Below the pieces are notes generated by a model that saw only the letters and a program-made list of their open reading frames with translations, ran no database searches and had not been told where the DNA came from. A stretch of DNA of 64,000 nt from an uncultured Planctomycetaceae bacterium (GTDB lineage Bacteria; Planctomycetota; Planctomycetia; Pirellulales; UBA1268). Numbering within the stretch: position 1 is the stretch's first letter; each line of letters opens with the position of its first letter. Below are positions 3,355 through 60,317 of the stretch, one piece after another. The translations under genes were made by a program, and so were the position numbers. The stretch is taken from assembly GCA_903917235.1 (NCBI GenBank), contig CAIWZS010000039.1, positions 15,695 through 79,694 on the forward strand, given 5' to 3'.

Positions 3355-3544
3355 ACGCTCGGGGGTGGAGGAAACGCGCCGCGGAAACCCTGCACACTAT
3401 GGGGATTTTTCGTCGCCTGTCAACGCAGGCCGCGGCCATGGCCCTCGCGGCTTGAATCGGTTTGGCAGCCGAAACTACACTGCGGGATTCCGTTCACGAA
3501 CCGCTCCCTGCACGACCTCAGGGCCTCCCCGTGCTGGGTGGGCG

Positions 3545-3624
3545 TGACCGCCCCGGATCGTGAGCGACCTGGATCATGACCGACCCGGATCGCGACCGCC
3601 CCGGATCCTGACCGCCCTGGATTC
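3545..3624 (+). repeat. five head-to-tail 16-nt repeats (consensus TGACCGCCCCGGATCN) in the ilvN leader
   Basis: Read directly. Units start at 3545, 3561, 3577, 3593 and 3609. The array ends 10 nt before the ilvN ATG. Confidence 0.9.
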
Positions 3625-19928: not shown

Positions 19929-19984
19929 GCCGCTTCGGGCGGACGCGCATCGCGCGGCACGTCGACCAGGCAAGTACGAACGCC

Positions 19985-20182
19985 GAGGCGAAGGGGGTCG
20001 GCGAACGCTTCCCGAGCGAGCGGCCGCCGCGGCCGGAGCGAGGAGACTTTTGCCGCCCCCTGAGCCGGTGCTCCGCCGCACGAGAAGACGAGGCGAAGGG
20101 GGTCGGCGAACGCTTCCCGAGCACGCGGCCGTCGCGGCCGGAGCGAGGAGACTTTTGCCGCCCCTTGAGCCGGTGCTCCGCC
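19985..20182 (+). repeat. tandem pair of 93-nt repeat units (period 105 nt), type II member of the window's repeat family
   Basis: Units at 19985-20077 and 20090-20182 differ at 4 positions. They fill the convergent gap between the response regulator and metF. Confidence 0.9.
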
Positions 20183-21076
20183 TCAGCCCCGCACACCCCG
20201 AGAGAGCCCCACGTCCTCGAGCACGCGGACCGTCGCTGGGGACCGGTTGAGCACGTAGAAGTGGATGCCGGGCACGCCCTCCTCGATGAGCTCACGCACC
20301 TGCCGCGTCGCGAACGTCACTCCCGCCTCGAACTGCGCGACCTCGTCATCTCCGGCCGCCTCGAACGAACTCGTGAACGCCTCCGGCAGCCGCGCCTTGC
20401 ACAGCGACGCGATGCGACGGATCTGCGCGTAGTTGGTGACGGGCATCACGCCCGGCACGATCGGGGCCCGGATGCCGATGCGGTCGCAGGCGTCCCGGAA
20501 GCGCAGGAAGTCGGCGTTGTCGTAGAAGAGCTGCGTGATCACGACGTCCCCACCGGCATCGCACTTGCGTTTGAGGTTCTCCAGGTCGGCCTCGGCGCTC
20601 ACCGCTTCCTGATGCGTCTCCGGATACCCGGCCACGAGAATGCCGAAGTCCGGAAACGTCTCGCGGATGAGGGCGACGAGCTCCGCCGCGTAGCGCAGGC
20701 CCCCGTCCACGGGCGTGAAGGCCGCGGACCCTTGGGGCGGATCGCCCCGCAGGGCGACGATCGCGGACACACCATGATCGCGGGCCGCCTGCAGATAGTC
20801 GCGAAGCTCGCCCACGGTGCTGCCGACGCACGTCAGGTGGCTCGCGACTGCCACGTCGTGCCGGTCGCGCACGCCTCGGATGACATCGAGCGTCTTCGCG
20901 CGGGTCGAGCCTCCGGCGCCGTAGGTGCACGTCACGAGCGCCGGCTCCCACGCCATGAGCTCGTCGACGGTGCGCCACATCATCGCCTCCGACTCGGACG
21001 TCTTGGGCGGAAAGAGCTCGAACGACAGCCCGAATCGTCCGGACGCGTAGGCATCGTGAAGCGGCATGACGGACAC
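20183..21076 (-). CDS. metF: methylenetetrahydrofolate reductase
   Basis: 297 aa. MetF pattern present (FSFELFPPKT...TCTYGAGGSTR...HLTCVG...LRGDPP). GTG start with GGAGGA 8 nt upstream. Confidence 0.93.
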   Translation of the reverse strand: MSVMPLHDAYASGRFGLSFELFPPKTSESEAMMWRTVDELMAWEPALVTCTYGAGGSTRAKTLDVIRGVRDRHDVAVASHLTCVGSTVGELRDYLQAARDHGVSAIVALRGDPPQGSAAFTPVDGGLRYAAELVALIRETFPDFGILVAGYPETHQEAVSAEADLENLKRKCDAGGDVVITQLFYDNADFLRFRDACDRIGIRAPIVPGVMPVTNYAQIRRIASLCKARLPEAFTSSFEAAGDDEVAQFEAGVTFATRQVRELIEEGVPGIHFYVLNRSPATVRVLEDVGLSRGVRG

Positions 21077-21160
21077 GGGAAATCCTCCGTGTGGATCGGG
21101 GATGGAGCCGCGGCGAGCAGCGCCCGCCGGCCCCTGCGATCTTAGAGCGCATCTGGTTTA

Positions 21161-21300
21161 GCTGTAGCGACGACTTGGCAAACCTGGAGACGGAGGCGAG
21201 GGGTCGGCGAACGCTCGAGGAGCTTTGGGCCGCCTCGGCCCACGCGACGAGACTTTTGCCGCCCCGAAGCCGTCGCTACACCAAATCGGGATACGCCCTA
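21161..21300 (+). repeat. structured intergenic repeat element, type I, copy A
   Basis: Its 112-nt core (21166-21277) is identical to 39829-39940. It is closed by terminal inverted repeats (gcTGTAGCGACG / CGTCGCTACAcc). The 3-prime flank is also conserved up to CTAG. Confidence 0.9.
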
Positions 21301-22596
21301 GATCGCGTCCGAGTTTGGTGTAGCACCGGGTTCGCCAGCGGCCAAGGAACCTGCCCCGGCCAGTTCGGTGAGCAGCGCGAGATCGGCCGGCAGCGATGGG
21401 ATGCCGCGACGCGCCATCATGCGGGAAAGGATGGTGGCCGCCTGATCGGGCGTGGACTGGCTGCCGCCGAGGCCGCCCATGAGCATGTTGAAAAAAGGCG
21501 GCACGCGGTCGGGCACGCTGCCGCCGATCGTCGCGGCCATCCCGATGCGTGCCCCACAGGGAAGCATGGTGCCGACCTGGCTGCGCACAAGGTCGCCGAC
21601 GAGGGCCCCGAGGAACTGTCGCCCCGTGTGGACCGTCGTTCGGCTGCCATCCGGCAGCGGGTCGTGGAGGCGGACCTCGCCGTAGGTGCTCTTGAGGTTG
21701 CCGGTGATCGTGCCCGCCGCGAGATTGACCCAGCTGCCGACGTGCGAGTGTCCGACGAACCCCTCGTGCGGCTTGTTGGCAAAGGGCTCGAACACCGTCG
21801 CCTCCACCTCGCCCCCGACCCGACAGCCGCGACCGATCGAGGTGCCCGGCCGAATCCACGAATGGGGATGGATCCGCGCCTCGGGCCCGACCCACACCGG
21901 ACCGTCGAGGCAGACGAAGGGGCCGATCTCGGCTCCGGACTCGACGACGACGGGACCCCGTCGCACGACGACGAGCCGATCGACGTGGCCACCTGGTGCG
22001 ACATGAAGTCCGGGACGCTCCTCGGCATACCGGCCTGCGTCGATACGTGCCGCGAGGTCATCCTCGATCGCTCGCTCGTGCTCGGTCACGACGTCATGCG
22101 GATCGACGAGCAGACGGATCTCCTCTCCCTGCTCCGTGGCCTCCCTTCCGGCGAGGGCGTGGGCCGCATCCGACCGGCGCTCGAGAAGCGCCTGCACGAG
22201 ATCGCCGTCGGCGGCCGAGGCGGGCAGGACGAGCGCGGCGGCGACGACGCCGTCCGCCGTCACCACCGTGGATCGTCCGGCGGCGATGAGCGAGCGGAGG
22301 AGCGCGAGATGTCGTGCTGTCGGCACGAGCCGCGCGTTGACGGCCAGCACCGGCGCGTCCTGAAGCGATTCGACGTGCGTGTGCCACGGCGGCAACCCCC
22401 ACAGCGTCACGCCACGCGACCGGCTCGAGGACGCGTGGGCTGCGAACGGGCGGCGCGGCACGGGTCTCACGACTCCGAGTGTGTCGAGCATGCCGACGAG
22501 GGTCGTCGTGCCGATCGTGAGCGCGCACGCTGGGCGGGCGGCCACGAGCACACCGAGCCGCTCGACGGCGTGATCCTCGAAGATGACGACGTGCAT
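21298..22596 (-). CDS. putative sugar nucleotidyltransferase with a C-terminal left-handed beta-helix (GlmU/RfbA-like)
   Basis: Track ORF 21298..22728 trimmed to the ATG at 22596 (MHVVIFEDHAVERL...). Hexapeptide-like repeats occupy the C-terminal half (VGPEARIHPHSWIRPGTSIGRGCRVGGEVE...VGSWVNLAAGTITGN). Confidence 0.75.
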   Translation of the reverse strand: MHVVIFEDHAVERLGVLVAARPACALTIGTTTLVGMLDTLGVVRPVPRRPFAAHASSSRSRGVTLWGLPPWHTHVESLQDAPVLAVNARLVPTARHLALLRSLIAAGRSTVVTADGVVAAALVLPASAADGDLVQALLERRSDAAHALAGREATEQGEEIRLLVDPHDVVTEHERAIEDDLAARIDAGRYAEERPGLHVAPGGHVDRLVVVRRGPVVVESGAEIGPFVCLDGPVWVGPEARIHPHSWIRPGTSIGRGCRVGGEVEATVFEPFANKPHEGFVGHSHVGSWVNLAAGTITGNLKSTYGEVRLHDPLPDGSRTTVHTGRQFLGALVGDLVRSQVGTMLPCGARIGMAATIGGSVPDRVPPFFNMLMGGLGGSQSTPDQAATILSRMMARRGIPSLPADLALLTELAGAGSLAAGEPGATPNSDAI

Positions 22597-22716
22597 CGAT
22601 GGCCCGGGATCAAGTGCCTGGGAAGGTTGGAAACCGCCGGTGCGGGCGACACGGTCCCAGCCGTGCGAGCCCGCGAGTGTTCTCTCGGAGAGGGTCTCGG
22701 CAGAGCGGATCCGTCG

Positions 22717-22770
22717 TTGGTGTAGCACCGGCGCCGGGGGGACGGCAAAAATCTCCGCGTTCCGACGGCG
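22717..22770 (-). repeat. partial, inverted copy of the repeat family's 3-prime module
   Basis: The reverse complement reads GGAGATTTTTGCCGTCCCCCCGGCGCCGGTGCTACACCAA. The type II 3-prime end reads GGAGACTTTTGCCGCCCCCTGAGCCGGTGCTCCGCC. Confidence 0.7.
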
Positions 22771-22888: not shown

Positions 22889-22971
22889 GCCGGAGTGGCG
22901 GAATGGCAGACGCGGCGGACTCAAAATCCGTTGCCCGCAAGGGCGTGTGGGTTCAAGTCCCACCTCCGGCA
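22889..22971 (+). tRNA. tRNA-Leu (anticodon CAA)
   Basis: Cloverleaf read by eye: acceptor GCCGGAG/CTCCGGC, anticodon loop CTCAAAA, long variable arm, T-loop GTGGGTTCAAGTCCCAC. CCA is not encoded. Confidence 0.9.
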
Positions 22972-26605: not shown

Positions 26606-26678
26606 AGCGGGCGACCGGACTCGAACCGGCGACATCCAGCTTGGGAAGCTAGCGCTCTACCAACTGAGCTACGCCCGC
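26606..26678 (-). tRNA. tRNA-Gly (anticodon CCC)
   Basis: The reverse complement is GCGGGCGTAGCTCAGTTGGTAGAGCGCTAGCTTCCCAAGCTGGATGTCGCCGGTTCGAGTCCGGTCGCCCGCT, with anticodon loop TTCCCAA. Confidence 0.92.
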
Positions 26679-38359: not shown

Positions 38360-38620
38360 GCGTTCCCGGAAAGGCGGGGCGGGAGGGGCAGGGCCGACTC
38401 ACCGCAGTCTACCGCGTTCGCCGGGCCGCTCCCCGAAGTCGCGCGCACGCGGCAGGAGCAGCGTCGCGGCGCCTGACCTCGGCGGCCGTTCGACTTACCG
38501 CGGGCCTCGCCACCTGCTACAGACCCGCTGCGGGGCGACCGTGACGATCCCTCGCGGCCCACGACCTGCCGACGCCCGCCCGGCGTGCGGGCGCAGGCCC
38601 TCGACCCGCGCGCGATCCGC

Positions 38621-39808
38621 ATGCGATTGCTCACGACACCCATCGCCGTCGCGCTCGTCCTCGCCGCCTCGGGACTGCGGGCCGGCGAACCCACGCCCCG
38701 CAGTGCGATCGACGTGACGGCGCTGCCACCCGTCGGCGATGCCATGGCGCTCGCTCCCGACAGCCTCCCACCGCTGCGACCGCACGACGGTGCCCACGCT
38801 GATGACCGGGTCGCGCTGCTGCCCCCGGTCGAGTTCAACCTCGAGCAGGACGCGTTCGCCACGGAGCCCGCACCGGGTCCGGGCCTCGGGGCCGGACCGC
38901 CACGCCGCCGTTTCGAGACGCCGTACGGTTCGGCCGCGCCGGTCTCGCTCGGCGCGTTCTGGGCTCCCGCCACCGACGTCGTGCGTCAGGGACCCAGTCT
39001 CGCCATGAACGCGCAGTTCGCCCGCGTGGCGATGCCGCTCGTGCCACCGTCCGAGGGACGACCGCTCTGGATCGGGGTCGGCCGATTCGGGCGGCTCGAG
39101 CTCGCGACCGACGCGGTCCTGCCGGACTCGGGCCGGCCGATCCCCGACCAGTTGTGGCTCGTCGAGACGGGCATCACGCACGTGCGTCCCCGGGACGACG
39201 GATCGACGCTCGGAGGCACGTTCCTCTTCGGTTCGGCGAGCGACCGCCCCTATGCCGCCGGCCGTGACCTGACGCTCGTCGCGGTCGCCTTCCTGCAGAC
39301 TCCCGCCGCCAACGACCGAGACGAGTGGAGCTTCAGCGCCTTCTACTCCCCCACGTCGCAGCTGCCCTATCCGCTGCCCGGGGTGGCGTACGTGTGGCGT
39401 CCGGACGCCACGCTCGAGGCCCGCATCGGTGTGCCGCCCGCGATCGAGTGGCGGCCCGACGACGACTGGACCGTGTCGGTGAACTGGTTTCCGCTGGTGA
39501 ACCTGAACGCGACCGTGCGCCGCCGACTCGACGAGTCGTTCTCACTCGTCGCCTTCTACCGCACCGACACGCAGATCTATTTTCTCGCCGACCGGGCGCG
39601 CGACGACGAACGCTTCTTCGTCTTCGATCAGCGGGCGGCCTGCGGGCTGGAGCGGTCGCTCGGCAGAGGGCTCACGCTCGAATTGCTGGGATCCTGGCTC
39701 TTCGACCGCGAGCTGTTTCAGGGCACGAATTTCACGTCCGGCCGCACCGATGTCGTGGAGCTCGAGGCGGGTCCGGCCGTCTCGCTGCAGCTGTCGTGGC
39801 GCCGCTAA
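38621..39808 (+). CDS. hypothetical secreted protein, possible outer-membrane beta-barrel
   Basis: Track ORF 38585.. trimmed to the ATG at 38621, with signal peptide MRLLTTPIAVALVLAASGLRA. The C-terminal half has alternating beta-like segments and ends ...VSLQLSWRR. Confidence 0.6.
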   Translation: MRLLTTPIAVALVLAASGLRAGEPTPRSAIDVTALPPVGDAMALAPDSLPPLRPHDGAHADDRVALLPPVEFNLEQDAFATEPAPGPGLGAGPPRRRFETPYGSAAPVSLGAFWAPATDVVRQGPSLAMNAQFARVAMPLVPPSEGRPLWIGVGRFGRLELATDAVLPDSGRPIPDQLWLVETGITHVRPRDDGSTLGGTFLFGSASDRPYAAGRDLTLVAVAFLQTPAANDRDEWSFSAFYSPTSQLPYPLPGVAYVWRPDATLEARIGVPPAIEWRPDDDWTVSVNWFPLVNLNATVRRRLDESFSLVAFYRTDTQIYFLADRARDDERFFVFDQRAACGLERSLGRGLTLELLGSWLFDRELFQGTNFTSGRTDVVELEAGPAVSLQLSWRR

Positions 39809-39823
39809 AGCACGTCTTGCGCA

Positions 39824-39963
39824 GGTGGAGCGACGACTTGGCAAACCTGGAGACGGAGGCGAGGGGTCGGCGAACGCTCGAGGAGCTTTGGGCCGCCTCG
39901 GCCCACGCGACGAGACTTTTGCCGCCCCGAAGCCGTCGCTCCACCACATCGGGATGCGATCTA
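39824..39963 (+). repeat. structured intergenic repeat element, type I, copy B
   Basis: Its 112-nt core is identical to copy A. Its terminal stem is GGTGGAGCGACG / CGTCGCTCCACC, which differs from copy A by a compensated pair. Confidence 0.9.
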
Positions 39964-40146
39964 GCCTCGACGCGCGCGGTTTTCGGAGGCGTGCGAGGCG
40001 CACCGTCGCGTGCGTCGGATGCGGTCCAGGACGCATCCCCACCGGTCGACCGCGGGGAAAAGGGCATGGAGGGCACGTTCCACCGGCTGCTAGAATCCCG
40101 GCCCACGCCGCAAGGCCTTCCCAAACCCCCCAGGCGGAACCCTGCC

Positions 40147-46378: not shown

Positions 46379-46462
46379 GCGGGAATGGCGGAATTGGCAG
46401 ACGCGCCAGGTTGAGGGCCTGGTGGTAGTAATACCGTGCAGGTTCAAGTCCTGTTTCCCGCA
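46379..46462 (+). tRNA. tRNA-Leu (anticodon GAG)
   Basis: GCGGGAA-TG-GCGGAATTGGCAGACGCG-CCAGG-TTGAGGG-CCTGG-long variable arm-GCAGGTTCAAGTCCTGT-TTCCCGC-A. It aligns position by position with E. coli tRNA-Leu. Confidence 0.9.
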
Positions 46463-59640: not shown

Positions 59641-59730
59641 CGGAGAGGGCGGGATTCGAACCCGCGGTCCAGCTTTTGACCGGACACGTCTTTAGCAAAG
59701 ACGCGCATTCGACCACTCTGCCACCTCTCC
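59641..59730 (-). tRNA. tRNA-Ser (anticodon GCU)
   Basis: The reverse complement is GGAGAGGTGGCAGAGTGGTCGAATGCGCGTCTTTGCTAAAGACG...GGGTTCGAATCCCGCCCTCTCCG. It has a long variable arm and closely parallels E. coli tRNA-Ser(GCU). Confidence 0.9.
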
Positions 59731-59780
59731 GAACTGCGTCGGACGAACCCGGCCCGACGTATCACCGACGCGACGTCAAT

Positions 59781-60317
59781 TCAGTCGTCGTCGTCTTCAT
59801 CCTCATCCTCATCCTCATCCTCGTCTTCGTCCTCGTCGTCCCACTCCTCGTCGTCGTCCTCCCACTCCTCGTCGTCTTCGTCCTCGTCCTCGTCCTCCTC
59901 TTCGTCTTCCTCCTCGTCCTCGTCGTCGACCTCCTCCCACTCCTCGTCGTCCTCCTCCTCGTCGTCCTCGTCCTCATCCTCGTCGTCTTCGTCGACGTCC
60001 TCGTCGTCGTCCTCGAAATCCTCGTCCTCTTCGTCCTCCTCCTCGTCCTTGGCGGCCACCGGAGATGGAAGGGACGGAGACGCGACCGGGAAGAGTTCCT
60101 CCGCTGCGAGGAGCTCAGGCATCTCACTCCACGAGAACACGTCGGCGTCAGGAACGTCCCGCAGCCCTCGCCCGCTGGCAACACTCGTCACGGCAAAACC
60201 TCCCGGCGTCTTGTGGCGACCTCGAACCTCGGCCAATTCTGTAACCGATCGCAGAATCAACGTCCAATCATCGACCGAAATCTTTTCCACCTTCGGGGTT
60301 CCTCGGAGGATTCGCAC
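59781..60317 (-). CDS. hypothetical protein with an 88-residue poly-Asp/Glu C-terminal tail
   Basis: The GTG at 60317 is the first canonical start after the scpB stop. The track ORF extends to 60560 but overlaps scpB there. A roughly 90-aa N-terminal region is followed by DEEEDEEDEDFEDDDEDVDEDD...DEDEDDDD. Confidence 0.6.
   Translation of the reverse strand: MRILRGTPKVEKISVDDWTLILRSVTELAEVRGRHKTPGGFAVTSVASGRGLRDVPDADVFSWSEMPELLAAEELFPVASPSLPSPVAAKDEEEDEEDEDFEDDDEDVDEDDEDEDEDDEEEDDEEWEEVDDEDEEEDEEEDEDEDEDDEEWEDDDEEWDDEDEDEDEDEDEDEDDDD

Follow-up and report, generated by a model that had tools for sequence, protein, structure and literature searches.

Repeat copies in the window

The 64,000-nucleotide stretch of DNA analysed here (hereafter, the window) contains two closely similar intergenic repeats, copies A and B, in the contexts described by a first, sequence-only reading: copy A is flanked by metF (PF02219) on one side and, on the other, by the stop codon of a gene for a sugar-nucleotidyltransferase, and copy B lies between a gene with a weak match to DUF6268 (38585-39808) and the gene of a protein starting with MHLRPLLTLLAVGAFASPAMG, which we read as a putative signal peptide. 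A base-by-base comparison showed that the 112-nt identity of 21166-21277 and 39829-39940, noticed in that reading, is exact. The two changes described in the closing stem were also recovered: T21165/A21278 of copy A is G/C in copy B, keeping the base pair, and the mismatch of C21162 with C21281 in copy A becomes a G-C pair through a G in copy B. The similarity extends beyond the identical segment, since a repeat finder gave 91% identity between 21143-21301 and 39806-39964. In the 160-nt alignment of the two copies all 15 differences are located in the two arms (10 in the left and 5 in the right), the arms being 32% divergent and the 112-nt centre 100% identical. Beyond the TA dinucleotides the flanks of the two copies are unrelated.

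The element had been placed at 21161-21300, limits that had to be moved: copy A occupies 21145-21298, with a TA repeat on each side, and what had been perceived as related 3' flanks of the two copies is the right arm of the element itself (Table 1). From 5' to 3', copy A is composed of the left terminal repeat GAGCGCATC, the inner arm GCTGTAGCGACG, an asymmetric bulge, the core hairpin, the inner arm CGTCGCTACACC and the right terminal repeat GATACGCCC, and it folds with -67.9 kcal/mol (z = -3.05). The terminal repeats are decayed in both window copies.

Two copies had been counted in the window, which holds three further ones, namely two cores in direct tandem (C and D) and a remnant (E). The C/D pair sits between a response-regulator gene and the 3' end of metF; its units are 95% identical, with a period of 105 nt, and copy C is of a diverged subtype, 'CTTCCCGAGC'. 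The repeat finder placed this pair at 19984-20080 and 20089-20185 and identified two long blocks that it has in common with copies A and B. The same position is also occupied in the related loci L077 and L074, the array being approximately 121 nt longer in L077. Remnant E is located upstream of the nucleotidyltransferase gene, some 130 nt from the nearby tRNA gene, and was not detected by the covariance model of the core (model R1). This model recognized four intact copies in the window, all on the + strand, and gave on the opposite strand no match above 16.6 bits in the window and none at copy A.

Table 1. Coordinates, strand and supporting evidence of the repeat copies and their flanking TA dinucleotides in the window
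Feature	Position	Strand	Basis
Left TA, target-site duplication of copy A	21143..21144		Inside TTAG 21142-21145; L077 empty-site comparison
Copy A, full-length MITE (putative), 154 bp	21145..21298	+	Sequence reading, repeat finder, full-length profile
Conserved core hairpin, copy A	21185..21281	+	Covariance model R1, 75.6 bits
Right TA of copy A duplication	21299..21300		L077 empty-site comparison
Left TA of copy B	39806..39807		Sequence reading, stop-codon tally
Copy B, full-length MITE (putative), 154 bp	39808..39961	+	Decayed terminal repeats AAGCACGTC ... GATGCGATC
Conserved core hairpin, copy B	39848..39944	+	Covariance model, 75.6 bits
Right TA of copy B	39962..39963		Inside CTAG 39961-39964
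Core copy C	19977..20076	+	65.2 bits; first unit of direct tandem pair
Core copy D	20082..20181	+	68.9 bits; second unit of direct tandem pair
Remnant E, right half only (GAGATTTTTGCCGTCCCC..GGTGCTACACCAA..GGATCCGCTCTG)	22701..22757	-	Pattern search, hit near 22739-22755

At gathering thresholds, the only Rfam matches in the window are four tRNA genes (22889-22971, 26606-26678, 46379-46462 and 59641-59730). The last of these is adjoined by a long run of imperfect 9-15-nt repeats resembling TCGTCCTC (59764-60075), possibly a low-complexity Asp/Glu-rich coding stretch on the minus strand, and four to five tandem copies of the 16-nt unit CGTGACCGCCCCGGAT are present at 3543-3622.

Organization of the full-length element

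Full-length copies have 160-162 bp when the flanking CTAG is included and 154 bp between the TA repeats. This form was defined on eight seed copies with CTAGAGCGCATC ... GCGCTCTAG ends, and its order is CTAGAGCGCATC, a variable segment, GTGTAGCGACG, an unpaired 5' segment of approximately 20 nt, the core of approximately 90 nt, CGGCGATACAC, a second variable segment and GATGCGCTCTAG. The whole element constitutes a long imperfect foldback, limited by imperfect terminal inverted repeats (consensus TA-GAGCGCATC ... GATGCGCTC-TA), whose terminal 10 columns show a mean pairwise identity of 0.72-0.75. Conservation peaks at the termini, at the inner GTAG block (GTGTAGCGACG/CGGCGATACAC) and in the core, and is lowest between them; the apical region differs in length by 1-5 nt from copy to copy. 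There is no conserved start-to-stop open reading frame among the copies, and the element is thus non-coding.

Since local alignment of flank against flank did not separate the different forms from controls in this GC-rich DNA, we used a full-length profile to distinguish them. Among its 170 hits, 49 span the profile from its first 10 positions to its last few, approximately 10 more nearly do so, and about 60 align over the core alone, some of the latter being full-length copies with diverged arms.

We also observed less common architectures. Two core variants (L047:4991-5111 and L100:4317-4428) carry in the 3' strand of the hairpin an extra segment of approximately 25 nt, AATCCGCAGGACCGCGCAGCGGCGA, which possibly forms an added small stem-loop. 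In the loci L014, L026 and L089 (e.g., L089:1534-1850), which belong to a single genome lineage, the core forms part of a longer repeat, sometimes in tandem, with TTGACAGAAA(A)GTGGAGG upstream and a GGACCACCCGCGCGCGGTCTCC hairpin downstream.

Distribution of the family

We scanned one genome per species with the pattern GGCGAACGCT-N25-45-CTTTTGCCGCC and obtained matches in at least 116 loci, nearly all labelled as Planctomycetota (Pirellulales, Planctomycetaceae and others); the first 80 loci listed come from at least 39 assemblies, each a species-level genome. All loci among the matches listed have a GC content of 58-72%, for which reason we did not trust the few 'Candidatus Kuenenia' labels. 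Locus L102 is a chance match, and the sole match in viral contigs is also a chance match. In these at least 116 loci and the window, an nhmmer profile of the core gave 155 hits. The repeats are scattered through many high-GC freshwater Planctomycetes genomes.

Among the matches listed it is common to find 2-4 copies per 8-kb locus, and 10 of the 131 clusters are direct tandem arrays. Copies are also frequent at the ends of contigs: at least 17 of the first 80 loci carry one within approximately 150 nt of an end and, of the six metF-carrying contigs listed, two begin inside copy A, two begin just beyond it and two span it. The 90 neighbouring proteins listed are unrelated housekeeping proteins (RecA, SmpB, Fur, histidine kinases and rhodopsins, among others).

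The identity of 112 nt would by itself have been compatible with two copies that belong to no family and are due to a recent segmental duplication or to chance, and the sequence-only reading had left room for there being two copies only. The existence of at least 116 loci with about 155 copies of the core, in at least 39 genomes and in unrelated gene contexts, speaks against this explanation, as do the unrelated flanks of copies A and B and an empty site in a close relative (see below). Chance similarity is excluded because the core was found some 155 times, and we attribute to this explanation as a whole a practically negligible probability.

Insertion, target site and stop codons

Comparison of all loci with the window by BLAST showed that L077 is collinear with it across metF and neighbouring genes, with 94-97% identity, and that the alignment skips from window position 21150 to 21299. 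L077 is shorter by exactly 156 nt at the place of copy A and keeps a single TA in the context T-TA-G: it reads GCGATCT-TA-GATCGCG where the window reads GCGATCT-TA-[G21145 ... C21298]-TA-GATCGCG. This single clean pair of filled and empty sites shows a precise insertion of copy A with duplication of TA, a duplication of TAG fitting equally well. For copy B, an 88%-identical orthologous locus without the element (L128) has an intergenic region of 182 nt, compared with approximately 338 nt in the window. The proposal that the repeat is mobile is hence substantiated by the filled and empty sites (n=1), the TA duplication, the terminal inverted repeats and the many unrelated contexts, to which the breaking of assemblies at copy A can be added.

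In a different pair of loci, one gene end with an 87%-identical flank carries differing versions of the element in two species (L039:5985-6077 and L055:909-1002), one being core-only with a GGGCCGCTCTGGCCC tip and the other full-length with a GGGCGTATCCTCGCCC tip. This difference suggests that the two were inserted separately at a single hot spot, or that one version replaced another.

At the termini of the 31 full-length copies with both flanks available, CTAG, TTAG and CTAA predominate. In 17 of these 31 copies the terminal TAG or TAA is the stop codon of the adjacent open reading frame, always with the same offset (7 at the left and 11 at the right end, one copy being counted on both sides); reading frames with a minimum of 80 codons and a GC3 signature of coding sequence were considered. 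With one more copy, which has a TGA stop codon 4 nt beyond its right end, the scripted tally for either end reaches 18, and at control positions 45 nt outside the element stop codons were found in 0 of 31 copies. Both window copies follow this pattern. At copy A, the CTA at 21298-21300 is the TAG stop codon, on the minus strand, of the nucleotidyltransferase gene (21298-22596), and the empty site of L077 has TTA (TAA on the coding strand) at the stop position of the same gene; at copy B, the TAA at 39806-39808 is the stop codon of the DUF6268-like gene.

With respect to neighbouring genes, 30 copies are placed between convergent genes, 25 between co-directional genes in sense, 22 between co-directional genes in antisense and 8 between divergent genes, counts that fit insertion at gene ends with no strand preference.

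The target sequences are scarce in the window. CTAG occurs 7 times, for 173 expected from base composition (approximately 25-fold under-represented), and two of its seven positions (14290, 21298, 26649, 29387, 29392, 39961 and 40090) are ends of the element; YTAR occurs 13 times for 348 expected (approximately 27-fold) and TA is approximately 3.5-fold under-represented. This scarcity may reflect avoidance of the target of the element or a general depletion of CTAG in bacteria.

A probable family of miniature transposons

The repeats have about 154 bp, inside the range of approximately 70-300 bp expected of such elements, and no coding capacity, are limited by terminal inverted repeats, occur in many dispersed copies and are flanked by a TA duplication with one clean empty site, as is typical of miniature inverted-repeat elements (MITEs). 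The TA duplication, or equally TAG, and the CTAG-type target are in turn those of IS630/Tc1-mariner elements. Some groups of the IS5 family also use TA-centred targets. We consider it quite probable that the repeats are copies of a non-autonomous, non-coding DNA transposon of 154 bp, mobilized in trans by an IS630/Tc1-mariner-type mechanism. IS630-family elements duplicate TA (PMC2170065), and the reference list of the same article includes a title reporting preferential IS630 transposition to TA in 5'-CTAG-3'.

In the mechanism that we propose, the gene of an IS630/Tc1-mariner-type DDE transposase would be located at another place in the genome; the enzyme would move the element in trans and insert it into the TA of (C/T)TA(G/A), preferentially of CTAG, with duplication of the TA. 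YTAR sites would be extremely rare in genomes of approximately 70% GC, and a large share of those where an insertion is tolerated would be TAG or TAA stop codons; the element would often land exactly on a stop codon because of this rarity, its own first or last base regenerating the codon. Among the 25 families listed for the 90 neighbouring proteins there is no transposase, of the Y1/RAYT type or any other, and no solo terminal repeats were found in approximately 0.9 Mb of family loci.

Two observations do not sit easily with a MITE moved by a DDE enzyme. Simple transposition does not explain the core-only copies and the direct tandem arrays, and DDE transposition does not usually require an interior that is strongly conserved and covaries.

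The tandem arrays, together with the very high copy density, would instead be expected of REP/REPIN-like repeats, moved as single-stranded DNA hairpins by a HUH tyrosine transposase (RAYT, IS200/IS605-like). The GTAG...CTAC motif at the base of the inner stem points in the same direction, and so do the irregularities confined to one strand of the hairpin (a bulged T and tandem G.A mismatches, described below), which are similar to those by which HUH enzymes recognize one of the strands. Set against these features are terminal inverted repeats ending in YTAR and a TA duplication that is clean at the single empty site; elements of the REP/IS200 type are not known to duplicate their target. The unit, moreover, has 90-160 nt and not 20-40 nt, no Y1-transposase is present in the neighbour families listed, and in multi-copy loci no inverted pair of copies flanks a short open reading frame. 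GTAG-tagged REPs were reported in the PVC superphylum, Planctomycetes included (PMC3733652). Taken together, we regard a REP-like origin as very unlikely.

Integron attC sites were also considered and rejected: the ends lack the R''/R' motifs (RYYYAAC ... GTTRRRY), and the copies are found next to housekeeping genes (metF and recA, for example) in either orientation, whereas attC sites form arrays of one orientation, each behind a cassette open reading frame.

Structure and covariation of the core hairpin

The 5' half of the core reads GGC-[GA]-GGGGG-T-CGGC ... CTC-[GA]-G-[GA]-GC and is followed by the apical hairpin and by the 3' half, GC-[GA]-C-[GA]-GAC ... GCCG-CCCCC-[GA]-GCC. As RNAalifold, applied to MAFFT alignments, recovered only part of the structure (15 pairs), we wrote it by hand, checked it by pair counts and refitted it with the covariance model (126 sequences).

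Changes on both sides of the pair were observed at 22 of the 33 pairs, compared with 9.4 +/- 1.5 in column shuffles and 6-11 with slid partner columns, counts that are somewhat favoured by the alignment having been fitted to the covariance model. For one pair, flanked on both sides by G.A motifs, we counted 90 copies with G-C and 20 with C-G. Two of the tandem G.A/A.G motifs alternate with Watson-Crick pairs (G.A in 67 copies and G-C in 34; A.G in 68 and C-G in 39; G.A in 50 and T-A in 22), and the third is G.A/A.G in 114 of 116 copies. Over all pairs, G.A and A.G account for 555 cells and T.C and C.T for 17, which confines the irregularities to one strand. Wobble pairs give no signal as to an RNA strand, since G.U (54) is balanced by A.C (49). 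A palindrome bound by a dimer on double-stranded DNA was discarded, as such a symmetric site does not require the G.A/G.A asymmetry on one strand.

The sequence-only reading had proposed that the stem is under selection, from a single compensatory change in the closing stem. Family-wide, this pair is T-A in 10, G-C in 7, G.A in 3, T.G in 1 and otherwise in 3 of 24 full-length copies; paired states dominate, and uncompensated intermediates nevertheless exist. Over the whole core uncompensated changes do not dominate, and the covariation in the family alignment argues for selection on the stem. A second pairing that had been suggested inside the element, GGCAAA/TTTGCC, found no support in the family, GGCAAA being located in a variable asymmetric bulge; in the family alignment TTTTGCCG pairs with CGGCGAA.

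A pair of orthologous copies (L054 and L041) allowed us to follow the changes in situ. The two differ at 13 of 84 core positions, where the adjacent gene is diverged at 21.7% of its third codon positions, and there are 0 changes in the 46 nt of the central segments. In the alignment, read by eye, 11-12 of the 13 changes preserve or improve pairing (e.g., GGGGG/CCCCC to GTGAA/TTCAC). This compensatory change in situ, in an unusual stem variant, indicates that pairing itself matters.

Selection or gene conversion on the core

The identity of the centres of copies A and B, between arms that differ by 32%, requires an extra force acting on the core, either selection or gene conversion. The latter is plausible, given this contrast and the observation of a strain with a 99%-identical flanking protein, in which copy B has a patch of approximately 20 nt replaced in its left half and is identical in the rest (window 39830-39870, GGCAAACCTGGAGACGGAGGCGAGGGGTC; L123:1700-1740, GGCAGCCCACGGCGGGCAGGCGAAGGGGGTT). 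The patch suggests gene conversion from another copy, and recombination between copies, which had been raised as a possibility for this repeat, is suggested by it as well as by the divergent arms around the identical centre. Gene conversion could mimic selection on the core. The core could be a fold of single-stranded DNA or RNA that the element or the host needs, could be homogenized by gene conversion, or both.

It is possible, if rather doubtful, that the core is a functional fold whose three tandem G.A motifs and bulged T are recognized by a conserved protein. This protein could be a host factor that binds or processes RNA and acts on 3' UTRs located exactly at stop codons, or a transposition factor acting on a hairpin intermediate.

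It has also to be considered whether the ~90-nt core is primarily a functional structured RNA, which transposition merely spreads and whose copies the host keeps; it could be a protein-binding or mRNA-stabilizing 3'-UTR module, or a small RNA. The strong covariation of the core and the conservation of tandem G.A motifs on one strand only are what would be expected of such an RNA, as is the asymmetry of the covariance model, which scored 65-76 bits on the + strand of the window and at most 16.6 bits on the opposite one. The identity of the A and B centres despite their decayed arms, and the compensated stem changes and invariant 46 nt of L054/L041 in spite of the divergence of the neighbouring gene, are also in its favour. 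Most copies lie directly behind stop codons and would thus be co-transcribed with the upstream gene. Nevertheless, there is no preference of orientation between co-directional genes (25 sense and 22 antisense), the window copies and their immediate surroundings contain neither a sigma-70-like promoter nor an intrinsic terminator, and no Rfam match was obtained over the element even with E up to 10 (best at most 19 bits, for thresholds of 42-190 bits). G.U and A.C pairs are equally common, and the patchy replacement in the 99%-identical strain indicates that conversion could homogenize cores without any function. We therefore consider a primarily RNA-based role unlikely. Of the two alternatives initially put forward, a mobile hairpin or a structured RNA, the mobile element stood, and a discrete small RNA gained no support, given the absence of orientation bias and of a detected promoter or terminator.

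A cis-regulatory RNA of 5' UTRs was another candidate, as some copies are 30-50 nt upstream of start codons, yet orientation over the copies tallied is unbiased, and it was set aside.

Comparison with known repeat families

The initial impression that the repeat matches no described family held, as Rfam was negative and topic and sequence-string searches of the literature found no published description of the element. The MITE to which we assign the repeats is a new family of the TA/CTAG-targeting (IS630-like) kind, with a conserved covarying internal hairpin.

Short terminal inverted repeats, TA duplication and CTAG-like targets are common to this family and to IS630/Tc1-mariner insertion sequences and the MITEs derived from them. 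RUP of Streptococcus pneumoniae is linked to an IS630-type element. With such IS630-derived MITEs our family also has in common a small size, the absence of an open reading frame and a high number of copies; however, a hairpin with tandem G.A motifs, conserved and covarying, occupies its interior in place of leftover sequence of an insertion sequence.

The Correia/NEMIS elements of Neisseria and the ERIC/YPAL elements of enterobacteria are likewise intergenic MITEs of approximately 100-160 bp with long imperfect palindromes, and ERIC is, like the present family, conserved across several species. Those elements adjoin coding sequences and are co-transcribed with them, and their hairpins alter mRNA stability (PMC3733652). 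The planctomycete element has no detectable sequence similarity to them, belongs to another host phylum and targets CTAG/YTAR, its termini being frequently stop codons.

REP/BIME and REPIN sequences with their RAYTs resemble the family in high copy number, GTAG motif, compensatory evolution of the hairpin and tandem clusters. Gaps between convergent and co-directional genes, downstream of open reading frames, are preferred by both (for REP: PMC3733652, which treats short GTAG/CGTC REPs only). In contrast to REP/REPIN, our element has a TA duplication, terminal inverted repeats and a unit of 90-160 nt instead of 20-40 nt; its arrays are direct repeats and do not alternate, and no RAYT is found in the neighbour families listed.

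Significance for Planctomycetes genomes

For a phylum with a poor catalogue of mobile DNA, the family provides a named and testable repeat. Its copies can be masked or annotated with model R1 and the 162-nt profile; copy A coincides with contig breaks in several assemblies, and many other copies are located at contig ends. The specificity for TA in CTAG, combined with the scarcity of such targets at 70% GC, would channel the transposon onto stop codons and leave the genes intact. A testable question follows, namely whether the hairpin is kept for the element, kept for the host through effects on mRNA 3' ends, or homogenized by gene conversion. If the core fold is functional, the family would represent a structured module of RNA or DNA that is mobile, spreads itself and is kept by purifying selection at orthologous sites.
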